Source: Candidatus Melainabacteria bacterium (GTDB taxonomy: Bacteria > Cyanobacteriota > Vampirovibrionia > 2-02-FULL-35-15). Taken from it: DNA of 64,000 nt. The notes below the pieces were generated by a model that was given only the letters and a program-made list of their open reading frames with translations, was not told the DNA's origin and did no database searches. How positions within the stretch are numbered: position 1 is the stretch's first letter; every line of letters starts with the position of its first letter. A program made the translations under genes and the position numbers. Below, piece by piece: positions 9,564 through 29,704 of the stretch. The stretch lies in contig JAHFBE010000001.1 in NCBI GenBank assembly GCA_023250205.1, forward strand, positions 66,428 through 130,427, written 5' to 3'.

Positions 9564-9566
9564 ACC

Positions 9567-13009: not shown

Positions 13010-14272
13010 TTATTCACCATCTGAGGATCGGTTGGCTTGAATAACAGTAACCCCGGAACCTCCGCCACCCAGCAAAGAACTATTAGTACCACTTCTTAAA
13101 CCTTTACTTTGATGACTAATTCTCCTAAACATATGATCTTGAAGAATGAAAGTACCAACATTTTGCCCGACTACATAAACAAGGGAAGAACCTACTGTGT
13201 GCAAGAAATTTCTAACTGCTTTTCCATGTGAAGCTCTTACCTCTATTCTATCGTTAGGTCTTAGAGCAATTTGATCAAGCTTAGTCCCACTTTGAAGCAG
13301 GTTATCAAGATTATATTCTTTCCACCTATAAACTCCTTTATCATCAAATCGTGCAATTCTTACTTTTTTAGTAGTGCCAACTACATCTGTGCCGCCAGCA
13401 CTTCCAATTGCATCAAATATAGTTGCATCATTTGGTAGTGTGAAATTCCCTGACATTACAACATCACCAACTACATTTACAGCAACTTCCTGATAAGCAA
13501 GCCTTCCAAGCAAGACGACATTCCCTTGTGCTTGATCTTCAATTTTGTCAGTTGATAAAACAAAAACCGCATCTCCCGGTTGTAAATTTACATCTTCAAA
13601 AGCTCTATCTCCAGTTACTAGAGCTTTTAAATCTACGATTCTCTTTTCAGAATTACTTCCTCTTGTTACAGTTATTGCTCTTATATCTGCCCTTGGTTTT
13701 AATCCACCTGCAAGCTGAATAACCTGTGTAAGAGAAAGTTCAAAAGTATTTGTTGTCGTAGCACTTGTCTTTCCATCTTCAGCCTGAGTCGTTGATGTTT
13801 CAACTTTGTACACCCCAGGGTTTACAATCTCACCACCTATATAAATGTTTATTGGTCTGTATCTGCTTAACTGTACAAATACAAGTGGGTTTTTTAATGT
13901 TTTTCCAAATAATTCCCTAATTTCATCAGACAACTCATTAACTGTATATCCAGCAGCAAGCAAGCTGTACTGCGTACCATCTGGCAATGGAATAGAAATA
14001 TATCCATCAGAAGAAACAACCAAATCATATCTTTCAACCTGACCAAATAACTCTCTTAGAGTTCGATCAACAATAGATAGTTGATCTCCCGGTCCAACAA
14101 TATATGGTGGAGTTAGTGTAACTTTCATTTTCACTTGCTTCGGCACCACATCAATTAAAGATTCTGATTCCTGAGCAAAGCTTAAATTACAAAGAATATT
14201 TTGAATCAAAAAAGAAACAATAAGAATTATATGAAATACTTTTTTCCAATCTTTGTATTTTTTATTCTTCAT
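13010..14272 (-). CDS. Polysaccharide export protein, Wza/OPX family.
   Basis: Signal peptide. PES motif (PYIVGPGDQLSI) and repeated SLBB-like segments. Confidence 0.75.
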   Translation of the reverse strand: MKNKKYKDWKKVFHIILIVSFLIQNILCNLSFAQESESLIDVVPKQVKMKVTLTPPYIVGPGDQLSIVDRTLRELFGQVERYDLVVSSDGYISIPLPDGTQYSLLAAGYTVNELSDEIRELFGKTLKNPLVFVQLSRYRPINIYIGGEIVNPGVYKVETSTTQAEDGKTSATTTNTFELSLTQVIQLAGGLKPRADIRAITVTRGSNSEKRIVDLKALVTGDRAFEDVNLQPGDAVFVLSTDKIEDQAQGNVVLLGRLAYQEVAVNVVGDVVMSGNFTLPNDATIFDAIGSAGGTDVVGTTKKVRIARFDDKGVYRWKEYNLDNLLQSGTKLDQIALRPNDRIEVRASHGKAVRNFLHTVGSSLVYVVGQNVGTFILQDHMFRRISHQSKGLRSGTNSSLLGGGGSGVTVIQANRSSDGE

Positions 14273-14283
14273 ATGATTCCTTG

Positions 14284-16401
14284 CTATGCTGCAGATTGTG
14301 AGATGTATCTGTCAGGATCACCATAACCGTAATAACCATACCCACTCAATACACTATTTGGAACACCATTTAGTATTACCCCCGTAGCAGTTACATTTGT
14401 TTTCTTTAAAAGATCAATAGATACCAGAAGTTCTTTTCTGGAAGTTTTGTTATATCTTGAAATCAACGCAACAACATCTGCATAACGTGCCAGTAGTAGT
14501 GCATCAGAGAAATAACCTAGTGGCGGAGTATCAATTATAACCAAATCATAAATATGCTGAGATGTTTCAAGTAATTCTCTCATTTTATCTGATTCAAGCA
14601 ATTGAACAGGGTTTGGAGGGATGTCACCACCTGGCAAATAATCAAAACCAATAATTCCTAGTATACTCTTCTGAACAACATCATAAAAATCAATTTCATT
14701 AATTAAAGTGTTACTTATCCCTACCGCATCTTTTGGTCTTGCCAGATACTTATATAATGAAGGATTTCTAATATCAGCATCTATTAATAAAACCCTCTTC
14801 CCACTTTGAGCATAGGTAATTGCAAGATTTACTGATACCGTAGATTTACCTTCTCCTTGAGTTGAACTTGTTACAAGTAACAGTTTTTTATTACCTGTTA
14901 ATGAAAGGAAAGAGAGATTAGTTCGTAACGCATGAATAGCTTCCGTAAAATCAGAACGTGGTTCCTGATAAACTACAGGCAAATCACTTATATATGTACT
15001 TGGGAGCTGTCCTAAGAATGGACAACCAAGATTTTTTGGTAAAGTATCAACACTCTTTATTACATCATCAAAATATTCGACCAAATATATTACAAGAGCA
15101 GCAAGGCATAACCCAATAATAAAACTAGTAAACAGTGTTCTTGAAACATCAGGCCATTTAGGCTTTGTTTCTAACGATGGTGGATCTATGAGTCTAATGT
15201 TTGTAATATGTGAAGCTATTACTCCCTTCATTCTTGATTCAATTAATTTACCTTCAATTTCTTCCAGTCTTTTTTCAGCGACTTCATTTTGTCTTAGTAA
15301 TTGATTATAAATATATTTTTCATTAGGTAATTTATCTAACTTTCTTTGAAGATCATCAATTGCTCCCTGAACAACAATCAATTGTTGTTCAGCAGCAAGC
15401 TCAGCAGTTTTTGTCTGAAGCAAGGTTTTTGTAAGTTCTGCTCTAAATGGATCTGCCGCGAAATTAAAAGTATCAGGGGATACTTCTTTTCCAACTAATT
15501 CATTTAATCTTTCTGCTATTAATTTCTTATCACCTTCAATTTGTTGATTCACTTCTTCCAACTGATAGTGTCCGGGCTTAACTTTTGTTTGTAGTTTGAC
15601 CAACTGTGCTTGTTTTTCATACAAATCTTTTCTTAAAGCTCCAAGAAATGGATCCTGATTAACTGTTGTATCAAGAATAGCTTCATCTAAACCTGACATT
15701 AACTGTTTTGCTGCTTGTTCAGAAGCAGATTTTGCTTTTACATAGTCAGTATCAATTGAAAGTTTAAGACTCTTTAAAGAATAAGCAGTTCTTATTAATT
15801 CATTATTAGATTCAAGTCCAACATTTTTACTTCTCTGTTCAAACTCCCTCAATCGTTTACTTGCATCCAGAGCTTCTCTTTCCGCTCTATTTCTTTCTTT
15901 TTTTAAAAACCTTATGGCACTTGCTGTATCACTTGCTTTTAATTCTATAGTTTTTTCTATGTAACTATCTGTTATTGCTTGTAGGATATCTTTTGCTTTT
16001 TTAGGATCTGGGTCTTGATATCTTAACTCCACAATATCAACGTTTCTATCTGCAGACACTGTAAGATTTCCACTAAGGCTTAAGTAGCTTAAATATTGTC
16101 CTTTTTGCGGTCCTTTCTTATAACGTAAATTAAACCTACGAATAACTTTTTCTAATATTGTTGATGACCTCATAATTTCAATTTGAGTCTGGATCGGATC
16201 ACTCAATCTTGCAATTGATTTAAATGGTTGAATTGAATCACTATTATCAAACCCAAGATCTTTTGCTTCAATAAGTAACCTATCTCTACTTTCATATATT
16301 GGAGTGACCGTAAGAGCATAAATCAAAGCTATAGTTGGTACTAAAAAAATAATTAGCAGGCCCAATCTTAAATGGATTCTAATTGCTTCGTAAAAATTCA
16401 A
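14284..16401 (-). CDS. Polysaccharide co-polymerase / BY-kinase (Wzc-like tyrosine autokinase).
   Basis: N-terminal Wzz-like TM plus periplasmic coiled-coil domain. C-terminal Walker A (GEGKST, LLIDADIRNPS). Terminal Tyr cluster GYGYYGYGDPDRY. Confidence 0.85.
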   Translation of the reverse strand: MNFYEAIRIHLRLGLLIIFLVPTIALIYALTVTPIYESRDRLLIEAKDLGFDNSDSIQPFKSIARLSDPIQTQIEIMRSSTILEKVIRRFNLRYKKGPQKGQYLSYLSLSGNLTVSADRNVDIVELRYQDPDPKKAKDILQAITDSYIEKTIELKASDTASAIRFLKKERNRAEREALDASKRLREFEQRSKNVGLESNNELIRTAYSLKSLKLSIDTDYVKAKSASEQAAKQLMSGLDEAILDTTVNQDPFLGALRKDLYEKQAQLVKLQTKVKPGHYQLEEVNQQIEGDKKLIAERLNELVGKEVSPDTFNFAADPFRAELTKTLLQTKTAELAAEQQLIVVQGAIDDLQRKLDKLPNEKYIYNQLLRQNEVAEKRLEEIEGKLIESRMKGVIASHITNIRLIDPPSLETKPKWPDVSRTLFTSFIIGLCLAALVIYLVEYFDDVIKSVDTLPKNLGCPFLGQLPSTYISDLPVVYQEPRSDFTEAIHALRTNLSFLSLTGNKKLLLVTSSTQGEGKSTVSVNLAITYAQSGKRVLLIDADIRNPSLYKYLARPKDAVGISNTLINEIDFYDVVQKSILGIIGFDYLPGGDIPPNPVQLLESDKMRELLETSQHIYDLVIIDTPPLGYFSDALLLARYADVVALISRYNKTSRKELLVSIDLLKKTNVTATGVILNGVPNSVLSGYGYYGYGDPDRYISQSAA

Positions 16402-16558
16402 ATTTCAACCCCTGTCATCTAAATATTCACAAATAAAAAACTGTTCTAATGTATAGTTACCCCCTGTCCTCTAGGGTTAAACTGTTATAGATTAAACATA
16501 TGAAATAAAATTTACAGTTAATCCGAATCAATTAGCAGGATAGCCCTATTCAAATTAT

Positions 16559-17572
16559 TTACTGAACCAAGCCAAAAGAAGTTGCAAGCAGAGCCTGATC
16601 ATCTAAAACAATATTTCCCGGTCCTGCTCCTACAGTTAAACCACTCCACATATTATCTATATACTTTGGTATAACAGTTGCAGCAATATGGTAATCATTT
16701 CCTATCTTATAAACATCATCAATTGTAATTCCTACAAATCCTTGAACAGTAACATTATTTGTAAACCCTTGATCTAGTGTAATAATTGGAGAAACAAATG
16801 TTTTCCCTTCAAAGTAAGTAGAGTCAAGCTGATTATAAACACTAGTTAAATTACCATTACTAATTTGAAAATGTTCCCCAACCATTAATGCTGGAGGTGA
16901 AACTCCTATAGATTGATTTTGGAAATAATCAATTATTTCTTTAATATCACTTGCATTTGCATTGTCCGAATTAAAAGAAGTAAAGTATGAGTTTGCAATT
17001 CCAGATTGAACTAAGTCAATCATATTATTATTATTATTTGCAATTGAAAGCAAAGAGCTATTCAATGCTAATGGAAACCCTCCTCCAGGAGCCATATTTC
17101 CTGCTATTTGCTTTGCAGCTACTGCACTTTCTGATATCTGGATATTATCAATCATAAAAACAATTGCAAGAAATGGGACTGATTTATAGGAGTAATAAAC
17201 TCTTATTGCATTTGTAGAAGGACTTACTTCATTTTCAACAAAAGTCATTCCATTAAAATCATAGCTACCAACCTGAATAGAAACATCAGGATTATCCAGA
17301 GTCAAAGTACTATATGAAGGTAAAAGCATTGAGAGATTATCATTTAGATATTGAAGTGCTGTATTTTTTGCATTATTAATATCTGTCGAATTACTTAATT
17401 GAGACACTCCTGCAATACTTGCAAAATCAACAGCATTTTTTATTCTTGTTCTCAACGAATAAGATTGACTGACATCAATAACAAGACTTCCCAAACCAAG
17501 TATTGAAGTTAACAAAATAGCAAAAAATGCCACCGCAAGACCTCGTTCATTTCTATTGATAATGTTAAACAT
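16559..17572 (-). CDS. TadG-like putative pilus-assembly/pseudopilin protein (copy 1).
   Basis: N-terminal TM (GLAVAFFAILLTSILG). Pairs with the overlapping TadE-like gene. Paralog of 21082..22068. Confidence 0.65.
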   Translation of the reverse strand: MFNIINRNERGLAVAFFAILLTSILGLGSLVIDVSQSYSLRTRIKNAVDFASIAGVSQLSNSTDINNAKNTALQYLNDNLSMLLPSYSTLTLDNPDVSIQVGSYDFNGMTFVENEVSPSTNAIRVYYSYKSVPFLAIVFMIDNIQISESAVAAKQIAGNMAPGGGFPLALNSSLLSIANNNNNMIDLVQSGIANSYFTSFNSDNANASDIKEIIDYFQNQSIGVSPPALMVGEHFQISNGNLTSVYNQLDSTYFEGKTFVSPIITLDQGFTNNVTVQGFVGITIDDVYKIGNDYHIAATVIPKYIDNMWSGLTVGAGPGNIVLDDQALLATSFGLVQ

Positions 17573-17999
17573 GTGAGACCTCAGATCTTGCTATAGAACT
17601 GCTTCTTACAACTGGACTCCAGGATTGATTTGAATTAAGTAAGCCAAATGGATTGATAATTGGAGTGTAATTATATTGAACCTGTACTGTAATTGTTGAA
17701 CCAACATTCTTCTGCGCTCCGGGAGCAGGTGTAATAATCAAAACAAATTTTGAAACATCAGGCAAGAGCTCACTTGCACCTGATACATCAATTAACTCCT
17801 GCTGAGTATAAACCGATGTTACAGATGCATACCTTGCAGTAGTTCTGGATATTTGATTAAGGGTATTTGTTAAATATAGAACATTTCCAAATTCAACTAT
17901 AAAAAAAGTTACACTAAGAAGTATAGGTATTAAAATAGCAGACTCAACCATTACACTTCCTGTAAAAGATCTATTAAAATAGTTTTTATATATCATCAT
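17565..17999 (-). CDS. TadE-like minor pilin/pseudopilin (copy 1).
   Basis: TadE N-terminal signature (GSVMVESAILIPILLSVTFFIVEFGNVLY). Paralog of 20654..21082. Confidence 0.75.
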   Translation of the reverse strand: MMIYKNYFNRSFTGSVMVESAILIPILLSVTFFIVEFGNVLYLTNTLNQISRTTARYASVTSVYTQQELIDVSGASELLPDVSKFVLIITPAPGAQKNVGSTITVQVQYNYTPIINPFGLLNSNQSWSPVVRSSSIARSEVSHV

Positions 18000-18319: not shown

Positions 18320-18481
18320 ATGAACAAATTAGTCCAATTTATAAAAGATGAAGAAGGTGCATCAATGGCCGAATACGCTCTTCTTCTGGGATTAATTACA
18401 GTGGCAATTGCTACAGTAATTACTGCATTTGGATCAAAGCTCAGCACCGTTGTTACAAACGCTACCGGCGTTTTAAAATAA
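18320..18481 (+). CDS. flp: Flp/Fap pilin (53 aa), copy 1 of 3.
   Basis: Manual translation: MNKLVQFIKDEEGASMAEYALLLGLITVAIATVITAFGSKLSTVVTNATGVLK, with the Flp motif G/(A/S)-EY processing site. RBS GGGAGG. Below the ORF-track size cutoff. Confidence 0.85.
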   Translation: MNKLVQFIKDEEGASMAEYALLLGLITVAIATVITAFGSKLSTVVTNATGVLK

Positions 18482-18612
18482 TCTTAGTTAGGCACAAGAA
18501 ATTCTTAATTTTGTTCATTTGAACATCTCCAGAATAATTGTGCCTTTTCTATTTAATACTAATATTTAATAGAGATATCTCTATTGCCTTAATACTATTA
18601 AGGTGTGGCATC

Positions 18613-18647
18613 AGCTAAACAAATCATTACTTAAGTATGATTTAGCT
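18613..18647 (+). promoter_or_regulatory. Stable hairpin (AGCTAAACAAATCAT…ATGATTTAGCT) immediately upstream of the flp2 RBS. Two further palindromes lie at 18569..18584 and 18587..18603.
   Basis: Inverted repeats read directly in the flp1-flp2 intergenic region. Possible processing/attenuation structure. Confidence 0.35.
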
Positions 18648-18662
18648 TAGGAGGCTACACTT

Positions 18663-18824
18663 ATGAATATCGTTAAATTGTTGCTCCAGGATGATGAAGG
18701 GGCTTCAATGGCAGAATATGCTCTTCTTCTTGGATTAATTACTGTTGCTATCGCTACAGTAGTTACAGCATTTGGATCTAAACTTGGTACAGTTATTACA
18801 AGCGCTACAAATGTACTTAACTAA
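18663..18824 (+). CDS. flp: Flp pilin (53 aa), copy 2 of 3.
   Basis: MNIVKLLLQDDEGASMAEYALLLGLITVAIATVVTAFGSKLGTVITSATNVLN. RBS TAGGAGG. Confidence 0.85.
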   Translation: MNIVKLLLQDDEGASMAEYALLLGLITVAIATVVTAFGSKLGTVITSATNVLN

Positions 18825-18921
18825 GAACTGTTAAATTAAATAAACATAATAAGCTATTCATGGATTAGTACATTCTTCTACAGGGTAAATAAAATTTATC
18901 TAAAAATTGTAGGAGAATCTT

Positions 18922-19083
18922 ATGAGTAGCTTATTAAATTTTATAAAAGATGAAGAAGGTGCATCAATGGCTGAATACGCTCTTCTTCTGGGAATAGTAA
19001 CTGTAGCAATAGTCACTGTACTAACAGCTTTTGGTTCTAAAGTTAGCACAAGCATTACCAATGCAACAGATGCCATTAAATAA
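18922..19083 (+). CDS. flp: Flp pilin (53 aa), copy 3 of 3.
   Basis: MSSLLNFIKDEEGASMAEYALLLGIVTVAIVTVLTAFGSKVSTSITNATDAIK. RBS AGGAGA. Confidence 0.85.
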   Translation: MSSLLNFIKDEEGASMAEYALLLGIVTVAIVTVLTAFGSKVSTSITNATDAIK

Positions 19084-19122: not shown

Positions 19123-19632
19123 ATGATAAACATTGGGGTTGATAATTTATTTCTTTTATTAATAACACTTACAGGTGCAACATATGATTGGAAAGCAAGA
19201 AGAATCCCAAACTGGCTTACATTTGGTGGACTAGCAATAATTCTTTCATTCAATACTTTTCATTTTGGGACTGAAGGCTTTATAAATTCTTTATTAGGTT
19301 TTGTATCTGGCATTGGGCTTTTACTCATCCCATATTTACTTGGTGGAATGGGGGCAGGTGATGTAAAACTTCTTGGAACTGTTGGTGCAATAGCCGGATA
19401 TAAAGGAATTGTTGTTATCTTTTTTTACACTGCAATCAGCGGATTGATTATTGGCATTATTTGGCTAATTTTTACCCCTGATCGTCTTAAATTTCTGATA
19501 ACAACAGGACAAATATTACCAACTGTAGATAAAAAACAAAAAGTCCCCTATGGTATTGCTATCCTAATGGGAACAATTCTATATATAATGTTTGGAGTGA
19601 ATAATATTTTTAACATAATCACATGGCAGTAA
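19123..19632 (+). CDS. cpaA: Prepilin peptidase CpaA/TadV (A24 family).
   Basis: Catalytic Asp motifs in context (TYDWKARRIPN, GGMGAGDVKLL). Polytopic membrane protein. Confidence 0.85.
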   Translation: MINIGVDNLFLLLITLTGATYDWKARRIPNWLTFGGLAIILSFNTFHFGTEGFINSLLGFVSGIGLLLIPYLLGGMGAGDVKLLGTVGAIAGYKGIVVIFFYTAISGLIIGIIWLIFTPDRLKFLITTGQILPTVDKKQKVPYGIAILMGTILYIMFGVNNIFNIITWQ

Positions 19633-20495
19633 ATCCACAATCATTTACCCCAAAAACAAAGAACAAATTAAGTTCTCTAATTGTAATGATTATTATTGCA
19701 ATTTTCTTAGGCTTAATCGCTGCTGTTGGTATTTGGCAATATTTAAATAAAACTCAACAACAGGTAAAAGAGTTTACTGTTACAAGAGCAGTAGTAGTAG
19801 CAAGTAAAGAAATTCCGGCTGGAAAAAGTATTGAGGAAACTGATCTTGCTATAAAACAATTACCCGCTAAAACAATTCCAAAAGACTATCCAAGTTCAAT
19901 TGATTCTATAAAAGGACGACTTGCAAAGCATACAATTGGACCTGAAGAAGTAATCACAGAGAGTAGATTGGTTGGTCAGGGTGCTGCTGGAGGCTTACCA
20001 GTAGTGATTCCTGCTGGTAAAAGAGCAATCACCATACGTGTAAATGAAGTAGTTGGAGTAGGTGGTTTCATTAATCCTGGTGATTTTGTTGATATCCTTG
20101 CAACTTTAAAGAAAAGCGATGAGCTAACCCTCTCAAAAACCATTTTGCAAAATGTTCAGGTTATTGCCGTAGGAGATAAAATATTCGATCCAAGCACTTA
20201 TTCAAATCCTCAGCCTAAAATCGTTTCTCAAGTAACATTTGCTCTATCACCAAAAGACTCTGAGAGACTAGCCCTGGCATCAGAAACCGGTCAGATTCAT
20301 CTGGTTTTAAGACCACACAGCGAAAAAGAATTGACTACTACTACAGGAGCTAACCTGGAAGATATTTATGGCTACATAGCTTCTGGAAATCAAGCCATAA
20401 ATATACCAATAATTCCAACTACAAGTGGTTCAAATATTGATAGGAATTCTATTGAAATTATTTTAGGTGACCAAAAAACTTATTATTATTATTAA
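19623..20495 (+). CDS. cpaB: Flp pilus assembly protein CpaB (SAF domain).
   Basis: N-terminal TM then an SAF/RcpC-like region. Position after cpaA. Confidence 0.75.
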   Translation: MAVNPQSFTPKTKNKLSSLIVMIIIAIFLGLIAAVGIWQYLNKTQQQVKEFTVTRAVVVASKEIPAGKSIEETDLAIKQLPAKTIPKDYPSSIDSIKGRLAKHTIGPEEVITESRLVGQGAAGGLPVVIPAGKRAITIRVNEVVGVGGFINPGDFVDILATLKKSDELTLSKTILQNVQVIAVGDKIFDPSTYSNPQPKIVSQVTFALSPKDSERLALASETGQIHLVLRPHSEKELTTTTGANLEDIYGYIASGNQAINIPIIPTTSGSNIDRNSIEIILGDQKTYYYY

Positions 20496-20653: not shown

Positions 20654-21082
20654 ATGTTTTTGCGAATAATTTCTAATCGTTCACATAAAGGAAGTGTAAT
20701 GGCTGAAGCAGCTTTAACTATTCCACTCTTGCTGGGTATTACTTTTATAATTATTGAGTTTGGTAATGTTTTATACTTGACAAACACATTAAATCAAATC
20801 TCAAGATCGGCAGCTAGGTCTGCCTCTGTAACACCCTCCTATACACAACAAGGATTAATTGATGCCTCCAGAGCCTCCGCTCTACTTCCTGACATTTCAA
20901 AATTAACTCTCAATGTAACTCCAGCTCCCGGGGCTGTAAGAAGTATTGGAGCAACCATAACAGTAACAGCACAATATAGTTATATACCTCTTATTAATCC
21001 ATTTGGATTTTTTAATTCAAATCAAACTTGGGCACCTACAATTAGAGGTATTTCTGCTGCCAGATCGGAGGTCTCAAGCTAA
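20654..21082 (+). CDS. TadE-like pseudopilin (copy 2).
   Basis: GSVMAEAALTIPLLLGITFIIIEFGNVLYLTNTLNQISR. ~60% identical to copy 1. Confidence 0.75.
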   Translation: MFLRIISNRSHKGSVMAEAALTIPLLLGITFIIIEFGNVLYLTNTLNQISRSAARSASVTPSYTQQGLIDASRASALLPDISKLTLNVTPAPGAVRSIGATITVTAQYSYIPLINPFGFFNSNQTWAPTIRGISAARSEVSS

Positions 21083-22068
21083 TGATACGAAATAATAAAG
21101 GAGTAGTAGCTGCGTTGCTTGTACTAATGATTCCTGTTGTTCTTGGAATGGGAGGTTATGTAACAGATTTATCGATTCAATATTTAAATAGGACTAGAAT
21201 AGAAAATGCAATTGATTTTTCTGCTCTTGCTGGCATTTCTCAATTAGCAAATCAATCTAATGTAAGCAATGCTAAGCAAGCTGCACTTAACTATTTAAAT
21301 ACTAATTTAACAGCTTCATTGTCATCGTTTGCTTCTTTATCTTTAAACAGTCCAGGACTTTCAATTCAAGCAGGTGTTTACGACTTTATTAATATGTCTT
21401 TTACTTTAGATGAACAAAATCCTAATATAAATGCACTTAAGATTTCTTATACCTATAACTCACCAACATTTCTTTCTCAAATATTTATGATAAATAGTGT
21501 AAATGTAACTGAAAGTGCTACAGCTGCAAAACAGCCTGCTGGCTGTGCTTCACCGGGAACAGGTTTTCCAATTACAATAGATGTCTCTTCTCTAGATACT
21601 GCTGCACAAAATAATAATATGCTTAATCTAAGTATAATGAATCAAAGTTATTGGACTCAATTTACCAATATTAATCCCAGTACTACTGATATTAATAATA
21701 TAATTGATTACTTTCAATCTGGTAATGGGACAAAACCTCCCGGTGTTAGCGTAAACGATAATATTAGAATAAACGATGGAAATATGAATGCTGTATTTAT
21801 GACTCTGGATCCTGCTGTTTTAGTGGGAATGAACTATATATTCTCTGTAGTTACTGTAAATTCGTCTACCGATGCAACTATTAATGCTTTTGTAACAGCA
21901 ACAATTAATAATATTGTTAGCAGCATGGGTCAACAATATGTAACTATAACAATAGTGCCAGGAAACATAGATAATGCCTTTGGTGGGCTGCAAATATGTT
22001 CAGGTCAAGCTAATGTAAGTTCAAGCAATCAGTTTCTATTATCAGATGCCTTTGGAATAGTCCAATAA
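21082..22068 (+). CDS. TadG-like protein (copy 2).
   Basis: N-terminal TM. Collinear similarity to 16559..17572 (…IENAIDFSALAGISQLAN…, C-terminal …SDAFGIVQ). Confidence 0.65.
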   Translation: MIRNNKGVVAALLVLMIPVVLGMGGYVTDLSIQYLNRTRIENAIDFSALAGISQLANQSNVSNAKQAALNYLNTNLTASLSSFASLSLNSPGLSIQAGVYDFINMSFTLDEQNPNINALKISYTYNSPTFLSQIFMINSVNVTESATAAKQPAGCASPGTGFPITIDVSSLDTAAQNNNMLNLSIMNQSYWTQFTNINPSTTDINNIIDYFQSGNGTKPPGVSVNDNIRINDGNMNAVFMTLDPAVLVGMNYIFSVVTVNSSTDATINAFVTATINNIVSSMGQQYVTITIVPGNIDNAFGGLQICSGQANVSSSNQFLLSDAFGIVQ

Positions 22069-22192
22069 ATAAAAATGAGTAGGCTTAGCCCTATTTCTAG
22101 GTCTACAACTTTATAGGGGAAACAATAAAAATTATTTCCTAAGATGAGTATAATTCTTAATAGAACTACCCTAAAGAAGTGGAGAGGAAGAT

Positions 22193-22429
22193 ATGAAAAA
22201 AATCTTTTCTAAAAATTTTCTTATAATTAGCTTAATTTTATCGCTTTTGTCATTTAATAATTTTGCACTTGCTGAGTGCATTACTGTGGGAAAACCAGTT
22301 GGGGCAGAATGTCATTTTGAAGACTGCGAATGTGCAACAGATGTTTGCCTAAATGGATTATGTGTAGAATGTGCAGATGACACTGATTGCCAAGATAGCA
22401 AACAATGTGTTGCTAATAAATGCGAGTAA
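22193..22429 (+). CDS. Small secreted cysteine-rich peptide (signal peptide + 51-aa mature region with 10 Cys).
   Basis: Strong RBS (GGAGAGGAAG). Signal peptide MKKIFSKNFLIISLILSLLSFNNFALA. Mature ECITVGKPVGAECHFEDCECATDVCLNGLCVECADDTDCQDSKQCVANKCE. Confidence 0.55.
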   Translation: MKKIFSKNFLIISLILSLLSFNNFALAECITVGKPVGAECHFEDCECATDVCLNGLCVECADDTDCQDSKQCVANKCE

Positions 22430-22434
22430 GCCTT

Positions 22435-24855
22435 CTAATTTAATTTTTTATTTTCCCTAGTCAATCTCATGGCTTCTTTAGCCTGAGAATATTTTTGCAT
22501 TTCTTTTTGCCAAGTTTGTTTTAGAGATTCCTGATATTGTGACAATTCAATTTGCTTCTTCTTTTCACTTTCTATTTTTCTTGTAAGCTTCTCTTTTTTT
22601 CTTTCTTCTTTTAGCTTTCTTTTTTCTTCATTACTAATTCTAGCTTTGCCTTGCCAGAAGAAATTTTTACTTTGTTTCATTTGATCATTCTTTTTTGAAT
22701 CATCTGAGTTTTCTATACTTTCTTTAAAATCCTTCTCAAGCTTTTTGTCTTCAAATCCATTTTTAGCTCTTTTTTGAAGCTCCAACCACTTAGAATTATC
22801 AGGCTTATTTGATACTTCTGACAATTCTTTTATAGGACTTTCTTTCGGGACTACCTCTTCAATCTGCTTTATTTCTTTTTGCTTCAATTGTTCTGAAAGC
22901 TTATTTAACTTATTTTCATTTAAAGATTTTTTATCACTCTCATCTAACAATGGATTATTATATTTTCCAGCATCAATTGGTTCTTTATTATCAGGACCTT
23001 GCTCATCCATCATATCTATCTGTGGTTTAAGCGGTGGCACTTGATTAAACTCATTATATGGAATCTCTGGATTTTTAAACTGAGCTATTTTATTTGGATC
23101 AGTTGCCCTAACAATCACTGGAGAAACAACTACCAAAAGCTCTGTCTGACCTTTTGTAAAAGACTTACTTCTAAATAATGTCCCTAGAATGGGTGCATCT
23201 CCAATACCAGGGACTTTTCTTAGACTTCTTGTATTATCTTCTCTAAGTAAACCACTAATGGCAAAAGCTTGTCCTGAATAAAGTTCAACCTGAGTTTGTG
23301 TTCTTCTTGTTCTAAATGCAGGTGGTCTTACAGAAGTTGATCCGGGAGGAACGACTAAATTTGAGAGCTCCGTATCTATATCCCTGATTTCAGGAATTAA
23401 TTGTAAAAATATTTTATCGTCACTAGTTAGTGTAGGTAATAACGAAAATTTGATTCCAAAAGGTTCATAAGTTACATCCTGACTTGCACCACCAGCAGTA
23501 AAAACAGATCTTAAAATTGGGACTTCGCCACCTGCTAGAAAAGAAGCTGGCTCTCCATTTGCAATTACAAGATTTGGCTCTGCCAGTGTTTTAATTTCTC
23601 CTCTTTGTTGCAATGCCTGTATAATTGCACCAATACCATTTTTAGGATTAAAAATTACTCCTGTAACTCCCTGACCAATCTCTTGAGAAAGGAATGAACC
23701 ATGACCAGCTCCATTTGCAAAAGAAAATTCAGAGCCTGTCTGTGCGCTTCCCGCCATAAATGACATCAATCCTACAATTGAACCTATACCACCAACAGTT
23801 TGACTTATTCCATTTCCACCAACAAAAGTACCAGCACCAAGAGTATTACCACCAGCAATTGTATTAAAGCCTAGATTTCTTGCAGCAGATCTATTGATTT
23901 CATAGAACCTTATAGCCACAGATATTTGAGCAGGATTGTCAACAGTTAGAAAACTTATAACTGAACCTCTTTGAGTAGTAGCAATTACCCCTCTGCTTAG
24001 ATTTGCATATCTATTAGAAGTAAATCTTAAAGGATCTCGTGCACCAAATGCAGTCGCTGAGCCTTGAGAACTCCCAGACTGAGAGTCTGAATTACTATAA
24101 ATATCATATCTACCGGAAAGTCCATCTACAATTTGACCTCCGGGTTGACTTATAATTTTTATTCCCTGATCACCAACATATGCTCCTGCAACCTGAAGAG
24201 CCCTTGCAATTATTTCTGCATTTGAAACTGCCCCTTTTAAAACAATCTTTCCAGTGGTAGCATTTGAACCTGCGCTTGAAGGACCAGTTGCTGGTTGACC
24301 ACTCGGTGATGGTTGGCTAGCTGCATTTGGATCTGGAGAAGCTGCCCCTCCTTGTGAAGCTGGATTTGAAGCTAAGGTACCACTTGGTGGAATGTATTCA
24401 ACTATAATGTTTTTGTCTAACTCACGCAATTGTTTAGTCAACAACTCAATATCAGGCCATACTGAAACATCAAACCTGCTTGGTTTGTCATTCCCTTTTT
24501 CCCAAATCAATACAGTACTGGTGCCAAGTTGCTTAGCTCTAGAAAATATTTCCTTTTCATTGAGGATCTGGATATCAACAATTGACGGATCACTTACAGC
24601 AACTCTTGAAACAGGCTTATCACTAAAAACAACTTCACCCTTACCTAAAATTATTTTCTTATCCTGTGTTTTATCTTGATAAAAATCAGCTTCTAAAAAA
24701 TAAACTTTGGAATTTGCAGGAAGCAAAAAATTTAAGATCGTTAAAACTACTAAAAGATATGATTTGATTAAAAGTTTTATTGAGGCGGAAGTATTAGTTT
24801 TCATAATCACGATAACGATTAGAGAACCAGCATTTAAAGAATTTGTTCCATACAA
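22435..24855 (-). CDS. cpaC: Tad secretin CpaC/RcpA with a Ser/Pro/Gly-rich linker and a ~230-aa K/E-rich coiled-coil C-terminal extension.
   Basis: Secretin core (GEIKTLAEPNLVIANGEPASFLAGGEVPI, LLVVVSPVIV). Long low-complexity SPSGQPATGPSS region. Charged C-terminal tail. Confidence 0.8.
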   Translation of the reverse strand: MYGTNSLNAGSLIVIVIMKTNTSASIKLLIKSYLLVVLTILNFLLPANSKVYFLEADFYQDKTQDKKIILGKGEVVFSDKPVSRVAVSDPSIVDIQILNEKEIFSRAKQLGTSTVLIWEKGNDKPSRFDVSVWPDIELLTKQLRELDKNIIVEYIPPSGTLASNPASQGGAASPDPNAASQPSPSGQPATGPSSAGSNATTGKIVLKGAVSNAEIIARALQVAGAYVGDQGIKIISQPGGQIVDGLSGRYDIYSNSDSQSGSSQGSATAFGARDPLRFTSNRYANLSRGVIATTQRGSVISFLTVDNPAQISVAIRFYEINRSAARNLGFNTIAGGNTLGAGTFVGGNGISQTVGGIGSIVGLMSFMAGSAQTGSEFSFANGAGHGSFLSQEIGQGVTGVIFNPKNGIGAIIQALQQRGEIKTLAEPNLVIANGEPASFLAGGEVPILRSVFTAGGASQDVTYEPFGIKFSLLPTLTSDDKIFLQLIPEIRDIDTELSNLVVPPGSTSVRPPAFRTRRTQTQVELYSGQAFAISGLLREDNTRSLRKVPGIGDAPILGTLFRSKSFTKGQTELLVVVSPVIVRATDPNKIAQFKNPEIPYNEFNQVPPLKPQIDMMDEQGPDNKEPIDAGKYNNPLLDESDKKSLNENKLNKLSEQLKQKEIKQIEEVVPKESPIKELSEVSNKPDNSKWLELQKRAKNGFEDKKLEKDFKESIENSDDSKKNDQMKQSKNFFWQGKARISNEEKRKLKEERKKEKLTRKIESEKKKQIELSQYQESLKQTWQKEMQKYSQAKEAMRLTRENKKLN

Positions 24856-24913: not shown

Positions 24914-25879
24914 CTATGACATTTTTCCCAGTGTTGAAACTAATTTAACAATTGGTGGACCCATTGTAACGGCCATTATCACGGGAAATATAAAAATTGC
25001 AAGTGGAATCATCATTTTAATAGTCATTTGAGCAGCTTTTTCTTCTGCTTTTTGTTTTCTACGTACTCTTAAAAATTCAGCTTGGTTTCTAAGTACTGTA
25101 CCTACACTTGCCCCAACTTTTTCAGATTGAACAATTACCCTTGCAAGATTTTTTAATTCCTCCGAATTTGCTCTTTCTCCAAAGTTTGCCCAGCATATTG
25201 CTCTTTCTTGTCCCAAGCTTAATTCTCGGTTAGTTAAAATTATTTCTTCAGTAAGTTCTTTACCCTTTGAACCAAGATTTGAAGCTACTCTTAAAAGTGC
25301 TTGATCAATTCCCATACCAGCCTCCGTACATATAACCAGCAAATCAAGTGCATCAGGTAATACTTTATCAATACTCTGCTGTCTCTCACCAGCAATTTTG
25401 TCAACAAACATATTTGTACCTATAAAGCCAATTGCCCCCGTAACAAAAGCAAGTCCAAAAGCAGCCTGTATATCTTTACCAAGAATCGAGCAAGCAAATA
25501 GAACCCCACCAGCAAGTGAAACAGCAACAGCAGACTTTATTGCATAAAAGAACTGTAATGATTTTTTACTCCTAAATCCAGCTCTGATTAATAGTTTTCT
25601 CATCTGAGATTGTTTGTTATATGGAACCTTTTCAGCCATCCAGTTTCCAACCTGTTCTCCCAATGGAAGTAAAACTCTTCTTGCAAATGTTTCATCCTTA
25701 TCTGGACTCTGCTGAGCTCCGTACAAACCAGTACTTCTTTCTGAAAGCCAGAATTTTAATCTTTTATTTATTTCTTTTGACTGCGAAGAAATCTCTTTCA
25801 TTCTATAGGCAATAAGCAAAAGGAGGAAAATCAATCCAAATGTACATAAACTAATTAATATAAATGCAAAGGAACTCAT
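24914..25879 (-). CDS. tadC: TadC (GspF-like inner-membrane platform protein).
   Basis: T2SS-F-like domain, polytopic. Position downstream of tadB. Confidence 0.8.
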   Translation of the reverse strand: MSSFAFILISLCTFGLIFLLLLIAYRMKEISSQSKEINKRLKFWLSERSTGLYGAQQSPDKDETFARRVLLPLGEQVGNWMAEKVPYNKQSQMRKLLIRAGFRSKKSLQFFYAIKSAVAVSLAGGVLFACSILGKDIQAAFGLAFVTGAIGFIGTNMFVDKIAGERQQSIDKVLPDALDLLVICTEAGMGIDQALLRVASNLGSKGKELTEEIILTNRELSLGQERAICWANFGERANSEELKNLARVIVQSEKVGASVGTVLRNQAEFLRVRRKQKAEEKAAQMTIKMMIPLAIFIFPVIMAVTMGPPIVKLVSTLGKMS

Positions 25880-25881
25880 TG

Positions 25882-26877
25882 TTATACCTCAAGTTTTGTA
25901 ATTTTCTGAATGACTAAATAACCAAAAGTCATTGAAATTGCACATCCAATTAAAATAATTTTTCCAATGGGATCAGTAGCAAACGAATTGTATACAGCTG
26001 GAGCCAATAGATTCAATACAATATATAAGCCAATCGGAAGAACTAATAATAAAACTGCAGATGCCTGATTTTCTGCTGTTAAAGCTTTAATCATTCCTTT
26101 TAGTCTGAATCTTTCTCTCACTGTATTTCCTATACTTGAAGTCAGTTCAGCCAGATTTCCACCAAGCTCCCTATTTATAATTATTCCAGTACATAAGATC
26201 TGGACATCCATAGTGTTTACTCTTCTTGAAAGATTGTTTAAAGCTTCACTTATCGGGAGTCCAAGATTAATTTCAATAATAACTTTTCCAAATTCTTCAC
26301 CAATTGGTCCAGGGAATTCTTCGGCTAAATGCTTTAGAGCAGCCTGAACATCCAATCCTGCACGAACATCACTACTAATCAAATCCAGTGCTTGAGGGAG
26401 TTGCTGAACAAATGCAGCTGTCCGCCTTTCTTTTAAGAACGTGAGTAAAATATACGGAACTATAGCTATACCAAATCCCACAAATGGAATATGAAAGAAT
26501 ATATTCACAAGCATAAATCCAGTTAATCCAAGGAATACAGTAAAAAGTAAAAATTCCCCTGCTTTTATTTTTAAGCCGCTTTGTTCTATAAGATTAATCA
26601 ATGACCTTGCGTTTTCTTTCAGGAATTTTAAGAAAATAGTATTTAACCATGGAATAGAGCTTATTCTCAGATCTCTCCTTAAATCAGATTCTTCGCCATC
26701 TTGACTAAGATTAGACTTTTCTTCAGCAAAAAAATGGTCTGTGCTATCAAGCGCTCGTTCCAATCTTTTATTCTGATGTTTTTTTTCTTGAGCATTCTGC
26801 CATATAAAAAAAGCAGACATGCAAAGCAATATTACTGCAATAAAACCAATTACAGAAAAGAACAAAGGTGCAAGCAT
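25882..26877 (-). CDS. tadB: TadB (GspF-like inner-membrane platform protein).
   Basis: T2SS-F-like domain. Follows cpaF. Confidence 0.8.
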   Translation of the reverse strand: MLAPLFFSVIGFIAVILLCMSAFFIWQNAQEKKHQNKRLERALDSTDHFFAEEKSNLSQDGEESDLRRDLRISSIPWLNTIFLKFLKENARSLINLIEQSGLKIKAGEFLLFTVFLGLTGFMLVNIFFHIPFVGFGIAIVPYILLTFLKERRTAAFVQQLPQALDLISSDVRAGLDVQAALKHLAEEFPGPIGEEFGKVIIEINLGLPISEALNNLSRRVNTMDVQILCTGIIINRELGGNLAELTSSIGNTVRERFRLKGMIKALTAENQASAVLLLVLPIGLYIVLNLLAPAVYNSFATDPIGKIILIGCAISMTFGYLVIQKITKLEV

Positions 26878-26880
26878 AAT

Positions 26881-28275
26881 TTATAAGGTCACATTAAACA
26901 TTTCTGCAGGTAATTTATAACCCATCGCTTCTAGCTTCTTTGAAAATAGTGGCCTTACCCCCGATGGTTTAAATATACCCTTTACCTTACCATTTTCGTC
27001 TATCCCTTTTTGTTCAAATACAAACACATCCTGAGTAGTGATAACACCATTTTCCAGCCCTGTTACCTCAGCAATTTGGGTAACCCTTCGTGAACCATCT
27101 GAAGCTCTATTTAACTGACAAATTAAACTTACCGCTGAAGCAATTTGTTCTCTTATAGCTTTTTGCGGAAGTTCAATCCCTGACATAAGACACATTGTTT
27201 CAAGTCTGCTAAAAGCATCTCTTGCAGTATTAGCATGTAATGTCCCCATACTGCCATCATGACCTGTGTTCATTGCTTGTAATAGATCAAGCGCTTCTCC
27301 AGATCTAATTTCTCCAAGAATTATTCTTTCCGGTCTCATACGTAAAGCATTTTTTACAAGATCCCTCTGAGAAATCTCGCCTTTTCCTTCAAGATTAGGT
27401 GGTCTTGTTTCAAGTCTAACGACATGGTCTCTTTGAAGCTGCAATTCAGCTGCATCTTCTATAGTTACAACTCTTTCCTGATCCGGAATATACCTGGAAA
27501 GAGCATTTAAAAAAGTAGTCTTACCAGAACCAGTACCACCAGAAACTATTATATTCATCCTACAAATCACACAGAGCTTCAATATGTCACACATTGCCTG
27601 AGTCATTGCTCCAAATTTAACAAGATCATCAAGGATGAATTTTTTCTCTGAGAATTTTCTTATTGAAAGGGAAGCTCCATCTATAGCAAGAGGTAAAATA
27701 ATTGCATTAACACGTGAACCATCTTTTAATCTTGCATCTACCATAGGAGAAGATTCATCCACTCTTCTACCAACACCGCTTGTAATGCGTGTTATAACTC
27801 TCATCAGATGACTCTCATCATCAAAAATAATATCAGTTTTTTCTAAGACCCCTTTTCTTTCAACATAAACATGATTTGGACCATTTACCAAAATATCATT
27901 AACAGCCGAGTCTCTCAACAAAGGCTCAATTGGACCCAGTCCCAAGATATCATCAATTAGTTCTTCTATTAATTGCTTTCTGTCATTAGTCCCTAGAGGT
28001 ACACCATCTTCTCTAAGGAGTGCTTCAATAAGATTTACAATTTGTTGTTTAGTAGAATCATCATTTATATCTTCACCTAGTTTTCCAGTATCAAGCTCTT
28101 CAAGAAGTTTCGAATGCAATTTTTTCTTTAAATCTTTATACGAGTTATTTGTCTTTGAGCTCGTAGCTGCAGTAGGCTTATGTTGGGCTGTCTTTAATTC
28201 TTCTTGAGAAGCAGATGGTCCGCCATCCTTCTTTGTAAAAAAATTCTTTGTAAAATGTTGATTTGGTTGACTCAT
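26881..28275 (-). CDS. cpaF: CpaF/TadA secretion ATPase.
   Basis: Walker A (IIVSGGTGSGKTT), Walker B/Asp box and His box (GHDGSMGTLHANTARDA). Confidence 0.92.
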   Translation of the reverse strand: MSQPNQHFTKNFFTKKDGGPSASQEELKTAQHKPTAATSSKTNNSYKDLKKKLHSKLLEELDTGKLGEDINDDSTKQQIVNLIEALLREDGVPLGTNDRKQLIEELIDDILGLGPIEPLLRDSAVNDILVNGPNHVYVERKGVLEKTDIIFDDESHLMRVITRITSGVGRRVDESSPMVDARLKDGSRVNAIILPLAIDGASLSIRKFSEKKFILDDLVKFGAMTQAMCDILKLCVICRMNIIVSGGTGSGKTTFLNALSRYIPDQERVVTIEDAAELQLQRDHVVRLETRPPNLEGKGEISQRDLVKNALRMRPERIILGEIRSGEALDLLQAMNTGHDGSMGTLHANTARDAFSRLETMCLMSGIELPQKAIREQIASAVSLICQLNRASDGSRRVTQIAEVTGLENGVITTQDVFVFEQKGIDENGKVKGIFKPSGVRPLFSKKLEAMGYKLPAEMFNVTL

Positions 28276-28292: not shown

Positions 28293-29513
28293 TTAAAACC
28301 AGCTAAGCAATCCTTTTTTCTTCGCTTTAGTATCATCCACAACTAAATTCTTTTCTTTGACACCTTTATCTTCTTGAGCCTGTGGCAAATCTGTCTTTGT
28401 AAACTTGCTTGCAAGAATATTATAAGAAGTAGCTAATGGGGAATTTGGTGAGACTTCTAAAAGTGGTCTTCCATAGTTTGCTGACTCAACACACAATTCC
28501 CAATCGTTTGGAAGAGAATGAAATATCTGATGATTAATCTGTTTTTGAATAAGCTCTGGTTCCAAACTTCCTATATACCAGTCCTGCCTATTGATTATTG
28601 GTTTAATTCTATGTTCTTGCACTCCTACCTCTTTTAAGGTATTTATAAAGAATCTGTTATCTCTAATCGCCAGAAGATCAAAGGTTGTCAACATAAGAAT
28701 ATCTGTTGCTCTTTGAATAAATAACATCGTAGTTTCATCAAGTAAATGTGTTGAAGTATCTATTACGATGTAATCATAAATTTCACTTGCAATATCAATA
28801 ACCTTACCAAGAGTTTCCAGATTTACATCATGTAAATCATTTGTTTTCATTAATCCACCGATTACAGAAAGATTTTTTCCAACCATGCTTACTGCATTAG
28901 TAAGATATTGCTCATCCAAGCTGTGACCCTGCCTGCAAATATCTGCCAGAGTACACTTAGGAATTACATTAAGCAAAACTGTTACATGGTTTGAGAAACC
29001 AGCTCCATCAATAAGCAATGTTTTCTTTCCATATACATTTGCAAGTGAATAACTTAAATTTACTGCAGCGGTACTTACACCTGTACCACCCTTATAACTT
29101 GTAAATGTAATAATTTTTGAAGTTCTTCTATTTATAGCATTTGTGCTAGGAGCAGTGTGCAATCGATCTAAGCTAGAAATTAATTCTGATCTCTTAAATG
29201 GTTTCACAAGAAATCCTATTGCTCCAAGTCTAATTCCTTCAATTGCAAGATCTGCATCTTTTTTATCAGATACTATTAAAAAATGTTTACCAACAAGATT
29301 TGGAGTAACTAAAGCTACTGTTTGAAATGAGTTTTCATGATTACCAGTAAAGTCAAATATAATTAATTCTGCTTCTTTTACTAAAGTCGGATCTTCCGCA
29401 ATTTTTGAATCTGTCGCTAAAGATATTTCTACCGGGCCTTCCCAGACATCAGCAAATGTATCTTTCCAATATTTATCAGAAGTTTCTTGAGTTATTATTG
29501 TAACTTTAAGCAT
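28293..29513 (-). CDS. tadZ: TadZ/CpaE: N-terminal receiver-like domain plus a MinD/ParA-like ATPase.
   Basis: Deviant Walker A in a ParA-like domain (SYKGGTGVSTAAVNLSYSLA). REC-like N-terminal ~120 aa. Adjacent to cpaF. Confidence 0.8.
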   Translation of the reverse strand: MLKVTIITQETSDKYWKDTFADVWEGPVEISLATDSKIAEDPTLVKEAELIIFDFTGNHENSFQTVALVTPNLVGKHFLIVSDKKDADLAIEGIRLGAIGFLVKPFKRSELISSLDRLHTAPSTNAINRRTSKIITFTSYKGGTGVSTAAVNLSYSLANVYGKKTLLIDGAGFSNHVTVLLNVIPKCTLADICRQGHSLDEQYLTNAVSMVGKNLSVIGGLMKTNDLHDVNLETLGKVIDIASEIYDYIVIDTSTHLLDETTMLFIQRATDILMLTTFDLLAIRDNRFFINTLKEVGVQEHRIKPIINRQDWYIGSLEPELIQKQINHQIFHSLPNDWELCVESANYGRPLLEVSPNSPLATSYNILASKFTKTDLPQAQEDKGVKEKNLVVDDTKAKKKGLLSWF

Positions 29514-29704
29514 GTGATATCGGTATAGCGATCCTTTGTTTCCCTAGTGATTATGTGCCCTGATACAATATTCGACAAACTACACTTATCGAGTAGATGT
29601 GATTTAATTCACAGGTATATGTTTAAATTTGAAACAACCATAATAAGAATTGATTTTACTTTTTTAACTTTATCTAGTAATAGCCCCATATATACAGTTT
29701 TTTT

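Follow-up and report, generated by a model that had tools for sequence, protein, structure and literature searches.

A cysteine-rich, Sec-exported mini-protein family of Melainabacteria encoded both within and outside Tad pilus loci

A gene for a small cysteine-rich secreted protein lies at positions 22193–22429 of a 64,000-nucleotide stretch of a Candidatus Melainabacteria bacterium genome (assembly GCA_023250205.1, contig JAHFBE010000001.1), hereafter the window, where it is embedded in a complete tight adherence (Tad)/Flp pilus locus. A first-pass annotation had described the product as a small secreted peptide with ten cysteines, unlike known Tad components, and had proposed that it is a pilus-associated tip, adhesin or cargo peptide or a bacteriocin-like molecule co-regulated with the pilus. 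The gene and its control region comprise the following features.

22112 to 22127, + strand: degenerate counterpart of the CRP-like box (TGTGA-N6-TCACA) of relatives, TATAGGGGAAACAATA in the window
22145 to 22154, + strand: −10-like promoter element TGAGTATAAT, consensus TGRGTATAMT, about 40 nt upstream of the ATG
22181 to 22189, + strand: Shine-Dalgarno sequence GGAGAGGAA, 3–8 nt before the ATG
22193 to 22429, + strand: gene of the cysteine-rich mini-protein precursor, an ATG-to-TAA open reading frame (ORF), stop codon included, of 78 amino acids (aa)
22193 to 22273, + strand: predicted Sec (signal peptidase I) signal peptide, residues 1–27, ending in ALA, with n-, h- and c-regions and a conserved A-x-A
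22274 to 22366, + strand: six-cysteine core, residues 28–58 (C29, C40, C45, C47, C52 and C57), which defines the family
22367 to 22426, + strand: optional four-cysteine module, residues 59–78 (C60, C66, C72 and C77), DPY-like and found in long forms only

The ORF runs for 78 codons on the + strand, and an identical peptide is already recorded in NCBI, ENA and Logan assemblies. The Shine-Dalgarno core AAGTGGAG is invariant in the three closest relatives, and GTGGAG or AAGGAG is kept at this position in all relatives in the upstream alignment. The precursor starts with MKKIFSK, which contributes three lysines, and continues with a 14-residue hydrophobic run, NFLIISLILSLLSF, and NNFALA|EC. Cleavage by signal peptidase I is predicted after Ala27; the site was assigned by the A-x-A rule, which it matches, with a helix at residues 7–21 of the AlphaFold2 (AF2) model as support, and it is conserved across the family. 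The lipobox [LVI][ASTVI][GAS]C of lipoprotein pilotins and TadD-like assembly factors is absent from the end of the signal peptide, where F-A-L-A-E-C places Glu before Cys, and likewise from the leader ends of the relatives (AFAEC, AFADC, ALAQNVC and AFAQEEC). There is no prepilin motif in the peptide, whereas the Flp genes of the window do show G/ASMAEYALLLG, and neither a prepilin-peptidase site nor a retained alpha1N helix was found, the sole hydrophobic segment being the removed signal peptide.

The predicted mature peptide begins at E28 and is hydrophilic, with 51 residues, ten cysteines and 12 Asp plus Glu against three Lys; the nearest homologue, P0004, has a calculated net charge of about −8 and an isoelectric point of about 4.1 when cut at the same A-x-A. 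The cysteines are spaced C29-x10-C40-x4-C45-x1-C47-x4-C52-x4-C57-x2-C60-x5-C66-x5-C72-x4-C77, correcting three intervals that had been read as x11, x5 and x5 (here x10, x4 and x4) and leaving the rest of the first-described pattern as it was. In all other respects the initial description of a small, secreted, acidic ten-cysteine peptide holds, including the ORF, the Shine-Dalgarno sequence, the signal-peptide features and the 51-residue mature part.

Cysteine density alone does not distinguish this gene, as one off-frame stop-to-stop segment in the AT-rich window has eight cysteines in 64 residues; we judge it to be more than a chance ORF because of its conservation. A spurious ORF is excluded for practical purposes by about 19 homologous clusters with conserved cysteines and by ratios of nonsynonymous to synonymous substitution (dN/dS) of 0.27–0.44. 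These ratios were obtained among four orthologues, with the exception of the pair L051–L004 at 0.81, and the corresponding omega is 0.29 for the mature part and 0.83, almost neutral, for the signal peptide. The gene is thus real and under constraint. No second copy occurs in the window, where 16401–16559, the site of the short form in L045-type loci, was specifically checked. No Rfam family or tRNA was detected in the window, the fold of the upstream intergenic RNA is no better than that of shuffled sequences (z = −0.62), and a terminator scan found none between the peptide gene and the secretin gene.

A word-indexed search recovered the identical protein and three homologues at 68–72% identity, an exhaustive HMMER search of 1.84 billion representatives only 11 proteins, and a profile search of a 5.8-billion protein set 19 proteins. 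The roughly 19 homologue clusters are small proteins of 64–82 aa, all from Melainabacteria-like metagenome-assembled genomes (MAGs) or metagenomes, and the true relatives have signal peptides of similar style and mature parts that are acidic, with net charges of −4 to −9. All 19 sequences keep C40, C45, C47, C52 and C57. At C29 a cysteine is aligned in 16 sequences, the remaining three having one a few columns off, and every long-form member has C60, C66, C72 and C77. The short forms P0014, P0015, P0017 and P0025–27 end just past C57 with an acidic tail. The search for loci was made with an eight-sequence alignment and with patterns that cannot find short forms, so that the distribution of the latter is underestimated.

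We found no family for the peptide in Pfam, NCBIfam (E up to 1), PHROGs or PADLOC. The Myxococcus cysteine-rich repeat TIGR02232 and the other cysteine-rich NCBIfam models gave no match either, and a scan of all 19 members returned only sub-threshold matches to DPY, DUF7107, EB, Dickkopf and LEAP-2. The peptide and its 18 relatives do not match PF07811, PF13400 or PF04964 even at E up to 10; together with the absence of a prepilin motif and of a lipobox, this bears out the view that the peptide differs from known Tad components. The LDL-receptor class A family (PF00057) likewise has no Pfam match to the peptide; the sole link to it is a phmmer alignment to 1cr8 (E 0.15) over CADDTDCQDS, and the acidic positions involved are not conserved in the family (VSNTDCSDS in P0004). 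The peptide represents an unannotated family, narrowly distributed and restricted to Melainabacteria, without a solved or curated relative.

Most loci returned by the genome and metagenome scans are cysteine-rich repeats in large Myxococcota, Bdellovibrionota and archaeal proteins and were rejected as orthologues. Also set aside was the homologue in L005 (9970–10165), a likely pseudogene or remnant that has no signal peptide and follows an ATG AAG TGA; the MAG that contains it is labelled Gammaproteobacteria, which may be a binning error. The short form P0014 (L053, 801–1010) carries an in-frame TGA at the conserved tryptophan of the signal peptide, called as W. This may be a nonsense mutation, a sequencing error or the product of a code-4 gene-calling model; the long ORFs of the window are intact under table 11.

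The six-cysteine core matches no known family. The C-terminal module has the pattern C-x5-C-x5/6-C-x4-C at residues 60–77, the same four-cysteine pattern as the DPY module of Drosophila Dumpy (PF21164), and it is the C-terminal 20 residues of the peptide that this likeness concerns. Matches to PF21164 were found in five of 19 members, the best at E 3e-4, but all score below the curated Pfam cut-off of 27 bits, and the window peptide itself has no match. The Dumpy structure 1oig is the top profile-to-PDB match (E 0.25) and the top Foldseek match (E 1.5, root-mean-square deviation 1.0 over 20 residues). The six-cysteine core has no counterpart in Dumpy, whose DPY modules sit between EGF modules of giant eukaryotic matrix proteins, unlike the free-standing peptide.

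With 19 sequences, AF2 predicts the mature part at a predicted local distance difference test (pLDDT) score of 78–88, with short strands at about residues 72–73 and 76–77, where the DPY-like module may form a small beta-hairpin. A Foldseek search of the PDB with two AF2 models (pLDDT 62, then 71) gave nothing at E <1, and matches to squash inhibitors and conotoxins have E ≥ 1.6. Candidate relatives among solved structures were rejected on sequence as well, the best E being 0.15 for single sequences and 0.25 for profiles, and the matches to Sm D3, fibrillin and evasin being compositional.

Residues 33–78 also align with single units of tandem repeats in the large proteins P0016, P0019 and P0020 (E 1e-4 to 1e-6), which belong to the “CxxCxxDxDC” type to which DUF7107 (PF23416) gives weak matches. 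There the unit is one of a tandem series or a domain of a large protein, whereas the peptide is a free-standing single unit with C29 and C45 in addition to the eight cysteines of the repeat. The spacing of C29 and C45 varies jointly, with an insertion after C45 in P0003, P0013 and P0014; since both are extra and vary together, we infer that C29 probably pairs with C45. Residues 33–78 resemble repeat units of many Myxococcota proteins as well. Several of these, of 210–220 aa (L007, L009 and L030), have a lipoprotein-like signal (…LTAC) and then a cysteine-rich N-terminal stretch, aligned with the peptide, that contains the CxxCxxDxDC motif of the peptide's tail; by eye they appear to end in an OmpA/Pal-like part.

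The Tad locus of the window contains the following genes and one regulatory site around the peptide gene, which stands, as first annotated, between a TadG-like gene and the secretin gene.

16559 to 17572, − strand: TadG1
17565 to 17999, − strand: TadE1
18320 to 18481, + strand: Flp pilin 1
18663 to 18824, + strand: Flp pilin 2
18922 to 19083, + strand: Flp pilin 3
19123 to 19632, + strand: prepilin peptidase
19623 to 20495, + strand: CpaB
20654 to 21082, + strand: TadE2, a TadE-like minor pilin (PF07811, E 1.7e-11)
21082 to 22068, + strand: TadG2, a TadG-like large minor pilin directly upstream of the peptide gene (PF13400, E 2.8e-6)
22435 to 24855, − strand: secretin of CpaC/RcpA type (PF00263 and PF13629)
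24914 to 25879, − strand: TadC
25882 to 26877, − strand: TadB
26881 to 28275, − strand: TadA
28293 to 29513, − strand: TadZ/CpaE
29598 to 29613, no strand assigned: perfect CRP-type palindrome TGTGATTTAATTCACA, about 92 nt upstream of the tadZ-tadA-tadB-tadC-secretin operon

The secretin, TadC, TadB, TadA and TadZ genes form an operon convergent to the peptide gene, with only 5 nt between the stop codons of the peptide and secretin genes. The locus has two TadE/TadG pairs (16559–17999 on the − strand and 20654–22068 on the + strand), and TadG1 is about 41% identical to the TadG2 orthologue of L001 by tblastn. The three Flp pilin genes at 18320–19083 are in tandem.

The clusters of homologues at 90% identity divide into nine that are linked to Tad genes, four that are not, and six on contigs too short to tell. 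Their settings are of four kinds.

Arrangement A (the window, L001 and L051): TadE2, TadG2 and the peptide gene on one strand, then the secretin gene convergent to them
Arrangement B (L004): the secretin and peptide genes on one strand, then the CpaB gene on the other
Arrangement C (L045/L046, L050, L053 and the P0017 contig): a Wzz-like tyrosine kinase gene on one strand and the peptide gene on the other, then TadG2-like, TadE and TadG1-like genes on the strand of the kinase gene, then Flp
Arrangement D (L006, L029 and L047, Caenarcaniphilales-type): a nitroreductase gene, the peptide gene and an RRM protein gene, with no Tad gene in the flanks covered
Arrangement D (L052): the peptide gene convergent to a nucleoside transporter gene, with no Tad gene in the flanks covered

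In L048, arrangement C is seen on the kinase side only. The peptide gene touches the 3′ end of a TadG2-type gene in arrangements A and C, in opposite orientations, and touches the secretin gene in A and B. Across these three arrangements the gene remains in the Tad locus under altered orientation and with different neighbours. The link to Tad holds for this clade and not for the family as a whole, so that the Tad association first noted in a single genome extends beyond it, to three arrangements, and stops short of the four clusters that lie elsewhere. The TadG2-like, TadE and TadG1-like genes of L045 are all on one strand, unlike those of the window.

Upstream of the gene, TG.GTATA.T is invariant in ten of ten aligned loci, in both Tad and non-Tad contexts, and is present also in L052 and L053. 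The element is kept even where the protein is only 36–47% identical and the neighbours are unrelated, and it matches a single place in the 64-kb window. In the three closest loci, the 124 nt that separate TadG2 from the peptide gene show 84% conservation. By these comparisons the peptide gene appears to form a transcription unit of its own, headed by a conserved promoter-like element, and the co-transcription with tadE2/tadG2 that the first-pass annotation named as a check is not required, given that the gene is convergent to tadG2 in relatives. Just downstream of the element (22155–22175), most loci have a short inverted repeat, TTCTTAATAGAA in the window and CTCTTATTAAGAG in L045, which could be an operator or a hairpin of the 5′ untranslated region.

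The relatives also carry CRP-like boxes with one to three mismatches, 20–21 nt upstream of the −10-like hexamer and of the same type as the perfect site before the tadZ-secretin operon. The box reads AGTGAGAAATGTCACA in L006/L029 and CGTGAGATTTATCACA in L047; it is weaker in L048 (TGTGAGGAAACTAACA), L051 (TGTGAGGAAAACAACA), L004 (TGTGACAGAAAAAACA), L045 and L053. The spacing would fit the geometry of a class II activated promoter, in which a CRP/FNR-type palindrome is centred near −41.5 relative to the transcription start. Perfect TGTGA-N6-TCACA sites are expected 0.08 times per window, and L004 has a perfect site of its own, TGTGATCTGCCTCACA (2609–2624), at the equivalent place about 97 nt upstream of TadZ, the spacer being of another sequence. 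The two sites suggest control of the Tad assembly operon by a CRP-family regulator in these Melainabacteria. Common CRP control of pilus and peptide is a lead, not a result; minor-pilin operons of Synechocystis are controlled by CRP-family regulators (PMC7690835).

The history of the peptide gene can be compared with that of its neighbours through synonymous divergence (dS). Between the window and L001, dS is 0.26 for TadE2, 0.24 for TadG2 and 0.28 for the peptide gene, and 1.29 for the secretin and 1.63 for TadC, an approximately five-fold jump at the convergent junction. TadE2 is 90% identical to that of L001, and nucleotide identity is 85–95% across the block that TadE2 opens and the peptide gene closes and 53–83% beyond it, with the step at 22420–22570. 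The secretin has had a history different from that of the peptide block, as its dS of 1.29 indicates. The simplest reading of this pattern is that TadE2, TadG2 and the peptide gene were swapped between lineages as one cassette, later than the divergence of the assembly genes. Against L004, dS is 0.68 for the peptide gene, 1.4–1.8 for most flanking Tad genes and 0.92 for CpaA. We do not rely on the low peptide value in that comparison, which comes from about 50 synonymous sites rich in two-fold degenerate codons.

Exchange of a cassette fits the idea that Tad pili have interchangeable tips. Such tips are built of TadE/TadG-like minor pilins, are rich in predicted disulfides and expose variable domains (PMC12075869). 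The TadE2/TadG2 pair of the window is of the same kind as the Kil tips (KilL, KilM and KilN) described there, and the two TadE/TadG pairs of the locus are reminiscent of multiple interchangeable tips. The peptide differs from the Kil tips in that it is not a pilin, having no prepilin-peptidase site, alpha1N helix or TadE/Tad domain, and no small non-pilin partner has been described for them. Bd0108 of the Bdellovibrio bacteriovorus hit locus is a further point of comparison, being a small, lineage-specific, periplasmic or secreted protein encoded in a type IVb (Tad/Flp-like) pilus cluster, that binds Bd0109 and changes piliation (PMC3818213). The Bdellovibrio pilus affected is of type IVa. Both genes are small, lineage-restricted members of a pilus cluster, encode Sec-exported products and stand beside a gene for a larger protein with a pilin-like N-terminus. 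Bd0108 is disordered and not cysteine-rich, whereas the peptide is predicted to be compact with five disulfides; no sequence relationship between the two is expected.

The mechanism that we consider for the peptide with TadG2 is that of TcpF with TcpB in Vibrio cholerae and of CofJ with CofB in enterotoxigenic E. coli. TcpF and CofJ are Sec-exported non-pilins encoded in the pilus operon that dock on a large minor pilin at the tip and leave the cell in a pilus-dependent manner. They differ from the peptide in being about 35 kDa and not cystine-dense and in belonging to type IVb rather than Tad (type IVc) pili, and we know of no such soluble cargo for any Tad pilus. Small secreted accessory proteins in type IV pilus loci have precedents; for a cystine-dense protein attached to a Tad minor-pilin cassette our literature searches yielded none, and they likewise returned nothing relevant on a cysteine-rich Tad component or on Melainabacteria Flp pili.

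We tentatively favor the reading that the mini-protein is exported by Sec and acts together with the tip module TadE2/TadG2; it is the best of the readings considered, though somewhat less likely than not. The precursor would be exported by Sec and cut after Ala27 by signal peptidase I, and the mature 51 residues would fold in the periplasm of the diderm Melainabacterium into a compact structure in which five disulfides may form. In the lineage of the window, the gene would then be a Tad pilus accessory and a member of the TadE2-TadG2 minor-pilin cassette. The folded mini-protein may bind to the TadG2-type minor pilin on its variable C-terminal domain and be carried out of the periplasm by the pilus tip via the secretin; at the tip, the non-pilin partner would act as a ligand or adhesin, or as a factor released in a pilus-dependent manner. 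The more specific proposal, that it is a non-pilin subunit or cargo docked on the TadG2 variable domain and carried through the secretin to the tip, we consider unlikely as it stands. The tip, adhesin or cargo roles first proposed are candidate functions. The partnership with the tip module draws on the observed constraint, the three Tad arrangements and the shared low-dS block, and by analogy on the precedents of Tad tips and Bd0108 and on possible co-regulation.

Several observations weigh against this partnership. Four clusters lie outside Tad loci, P0012, P0022 and P0024 adjoining the nitroreductase gene and P0021 the nucleoside transporter gene, and in L004 no TadE or TadG gene is adjacent to the peptide gene. 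The peptide gene has its own promoter-like element and is convergent to tadG2 in arrangement C, so that co-transcription is not conserved. All Tad-linked cases belong to one fairly narrow clade, and shared ancestry explains part of the linkage. No fusion of the six-cysteine core to a pilin or other Tad protein occurs among the 1.84 billion representatives, and the CRP-like box is degenerate in the window itself. The divergence block is seen against one 5.6-kb MAG contig (L001), possibly an assembly chimera, and the dS jump indicates that either the minor-pilin cassette has recombined or the contig is chimeric.

The same autonomy of the gene, with a shared promoter-like element in Tad and non-Tad contexts, is what would be expected if the peptide were a stand-alone secreted or periplasmic mini-protein, such as an inhibitor of proteases or carboxypeptidases, a peptide that binds calcium or belongs to a matrix, or an extracellular ligand, whose position in the Tad locus is historical and arose via local rearrangements. 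Among the four clusters outside Tad loci, three show their own conserved synteny, the C-terminal module recurs as a generic repeat in large secreted proteins of Myxococcota, Bdellovibrionota and archaea, and the weak structural neighbours are squash trypsin inhibitors, an Ascaris carboxypeptidase inhibitor and the DPY module. These structural matches all have E >1, however, and lend no support to a specific inhibitor function. A merely historical position also sits poorly with the persistence of the gene in the Tad locus across three rearrangements, with the low-dS block common to the peptide, TadE2 and TadG2, and with a peptide gene that abuts a TadG2-type gene in two arrangements; on balance we regard independence from the pilus as somewhat unlikely, though it is the main alternative. 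In arrangements A and B the peptide gene abuts the secretin gene at its 3′ end, as might a gene for a pilotin- or RcpB-like assembly factor that would aid insertion or gating of the Tad secretin. This we find the most improbable of the functions considered: in arrangement C the two genes are about 4.6 kb apart with seven genes between them, the dS of the peptide matches the TadE2/TadG2 block and not the secretin, and pilotins are lipoproteins, whereas the peptide has no lipobox.

The non-cysteine positions evolve fast (omega up to 0.8 in L051–L004), as expected of molecules that face other organisms. For a predatory or epibiotic Melainabacterium, an exported effector, toxin or antimicrobial peptide that is delivered to other cells and regulated jointly with the pilus would be fitting, and some Melainabacteria (Vampirovibrio) are predatory. 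Myxococcus Tad-like pili mediate contact-dependent killing (PMC8460266, PMC12075869). We nevertheless think such a role very unlikely, as the net charges of the mature peptides, −4 to −9, are not those of membrane-active antimicrobial peptides, the adjacent genes include none for immunity or dedicated export, and there is no PADLOC or PHROG match and no similarity to toxin families. The bacteriocin-like role raised in the first-pass annotation, in its classical cationic sense, is unlikely for similar reasons: the leader is of the Sec type, all members are strongly acidic, and neither an immunity gene nor an ABC-transporter gene typical of class II bacteriocins adjoins the peptide gene. Lastly, the peptide could bind TadG2 in the periplasm and tune piliation as a regulator of pilus extension, without being displayed or exported. 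Bd0108 sets the example, altering pilus extrusion and binding its neighbour Bd0109, a protein with a pilin-like N-terminus (PMC3818213), and the peptide shares its genomic logic of a small, lineage-restricted, Sec-exported product encoded beside a TadG-like gene. Bd0108 is described as intrinsically disordered (PMC4267844), whereas the peptide is predicted to be compact (pLDDT 78–88), and the non-Tad copies argue against a role strictly tied to pili; a regulator of this kind accordingly appears quite unlikely.

Named close relatives of the phosphoglycerate kinase at 30837–32087 (73–79% identity) are all “Candidatus Melainabacteria”, others having 55% identity or less, and the closest named Tad locus (L004) is from a Melainabacteria MAG. 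On this sequence evidence the organism is assigned to the Melainabacteria, class Vampirovibrionia. The G+C content of the window is about 34%. A polysaccharide export module (12158–16401, − strand) lies beside the Tad locus and includes three genes.

12158 to 13009, − strand: weakly TrbI-like gene
13010 to 14272, − strand: Poly_export/SLBB gene
14284 to 16401, − strand: Wzz/tyrosine-kinase-like gene

Loci of the L045 type have the peptide gene and the Wzz/tyrosine-kinase-like gene in divergent orientation. Farther away, 8122–10337 (+ strand) encodes the flagellar export proteins FliP, a FliQ-like protein and FliR, then an Rrf2 regulator and a class-V aminotransferase, which fits a flagellated Melainabacterium. 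A 5127-aa ORF at 38404–53787 (+ strand), with FG-GAP, Kelch-type and Vgb-lyase-like beta-propeller repeats and TIG domains, presumably encodes a giant surface protein; the non-Tad loci L006 and L029 likewise carry ORFs of 2100–2200 aa, a few genes from the peptide gene.

Should the peptide prove to be a stand-alone mini-protein, it would be one more narrowly distributed orphan secreted mini-protein, of limited interest. Tad pili are widespread and serve adhesion, colonisation and, in predators, killing, with function set by exchangeable minor-pilin tips. If the partnership with TadE2/TadG2 is correct, a conserved non-pilin, disulfide-rich partner that travels with the tip cassette would be a new type of Tad component. 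If, further, it is a subunit or cargo carried to the tip, the exchangeable TadE2-TadG2-peptide cassette would determine the binding or delivery by the pilus, and display or secretion of a soluble Sec-dependent protein would be shown for a Tad (type IVc) pilus for the first time. At 51 residues the mature peptide can be synthesised or expressed and would be a tractable target for studying how tips gain specificity. The Melainabacteria are poorly studied and almost nothing is known of their surface biology; as such a subunit or cargo, the peptide would provide a first functional handle on the surface appendages of these non-photosynthetic relatives of the Cyanobacteria.

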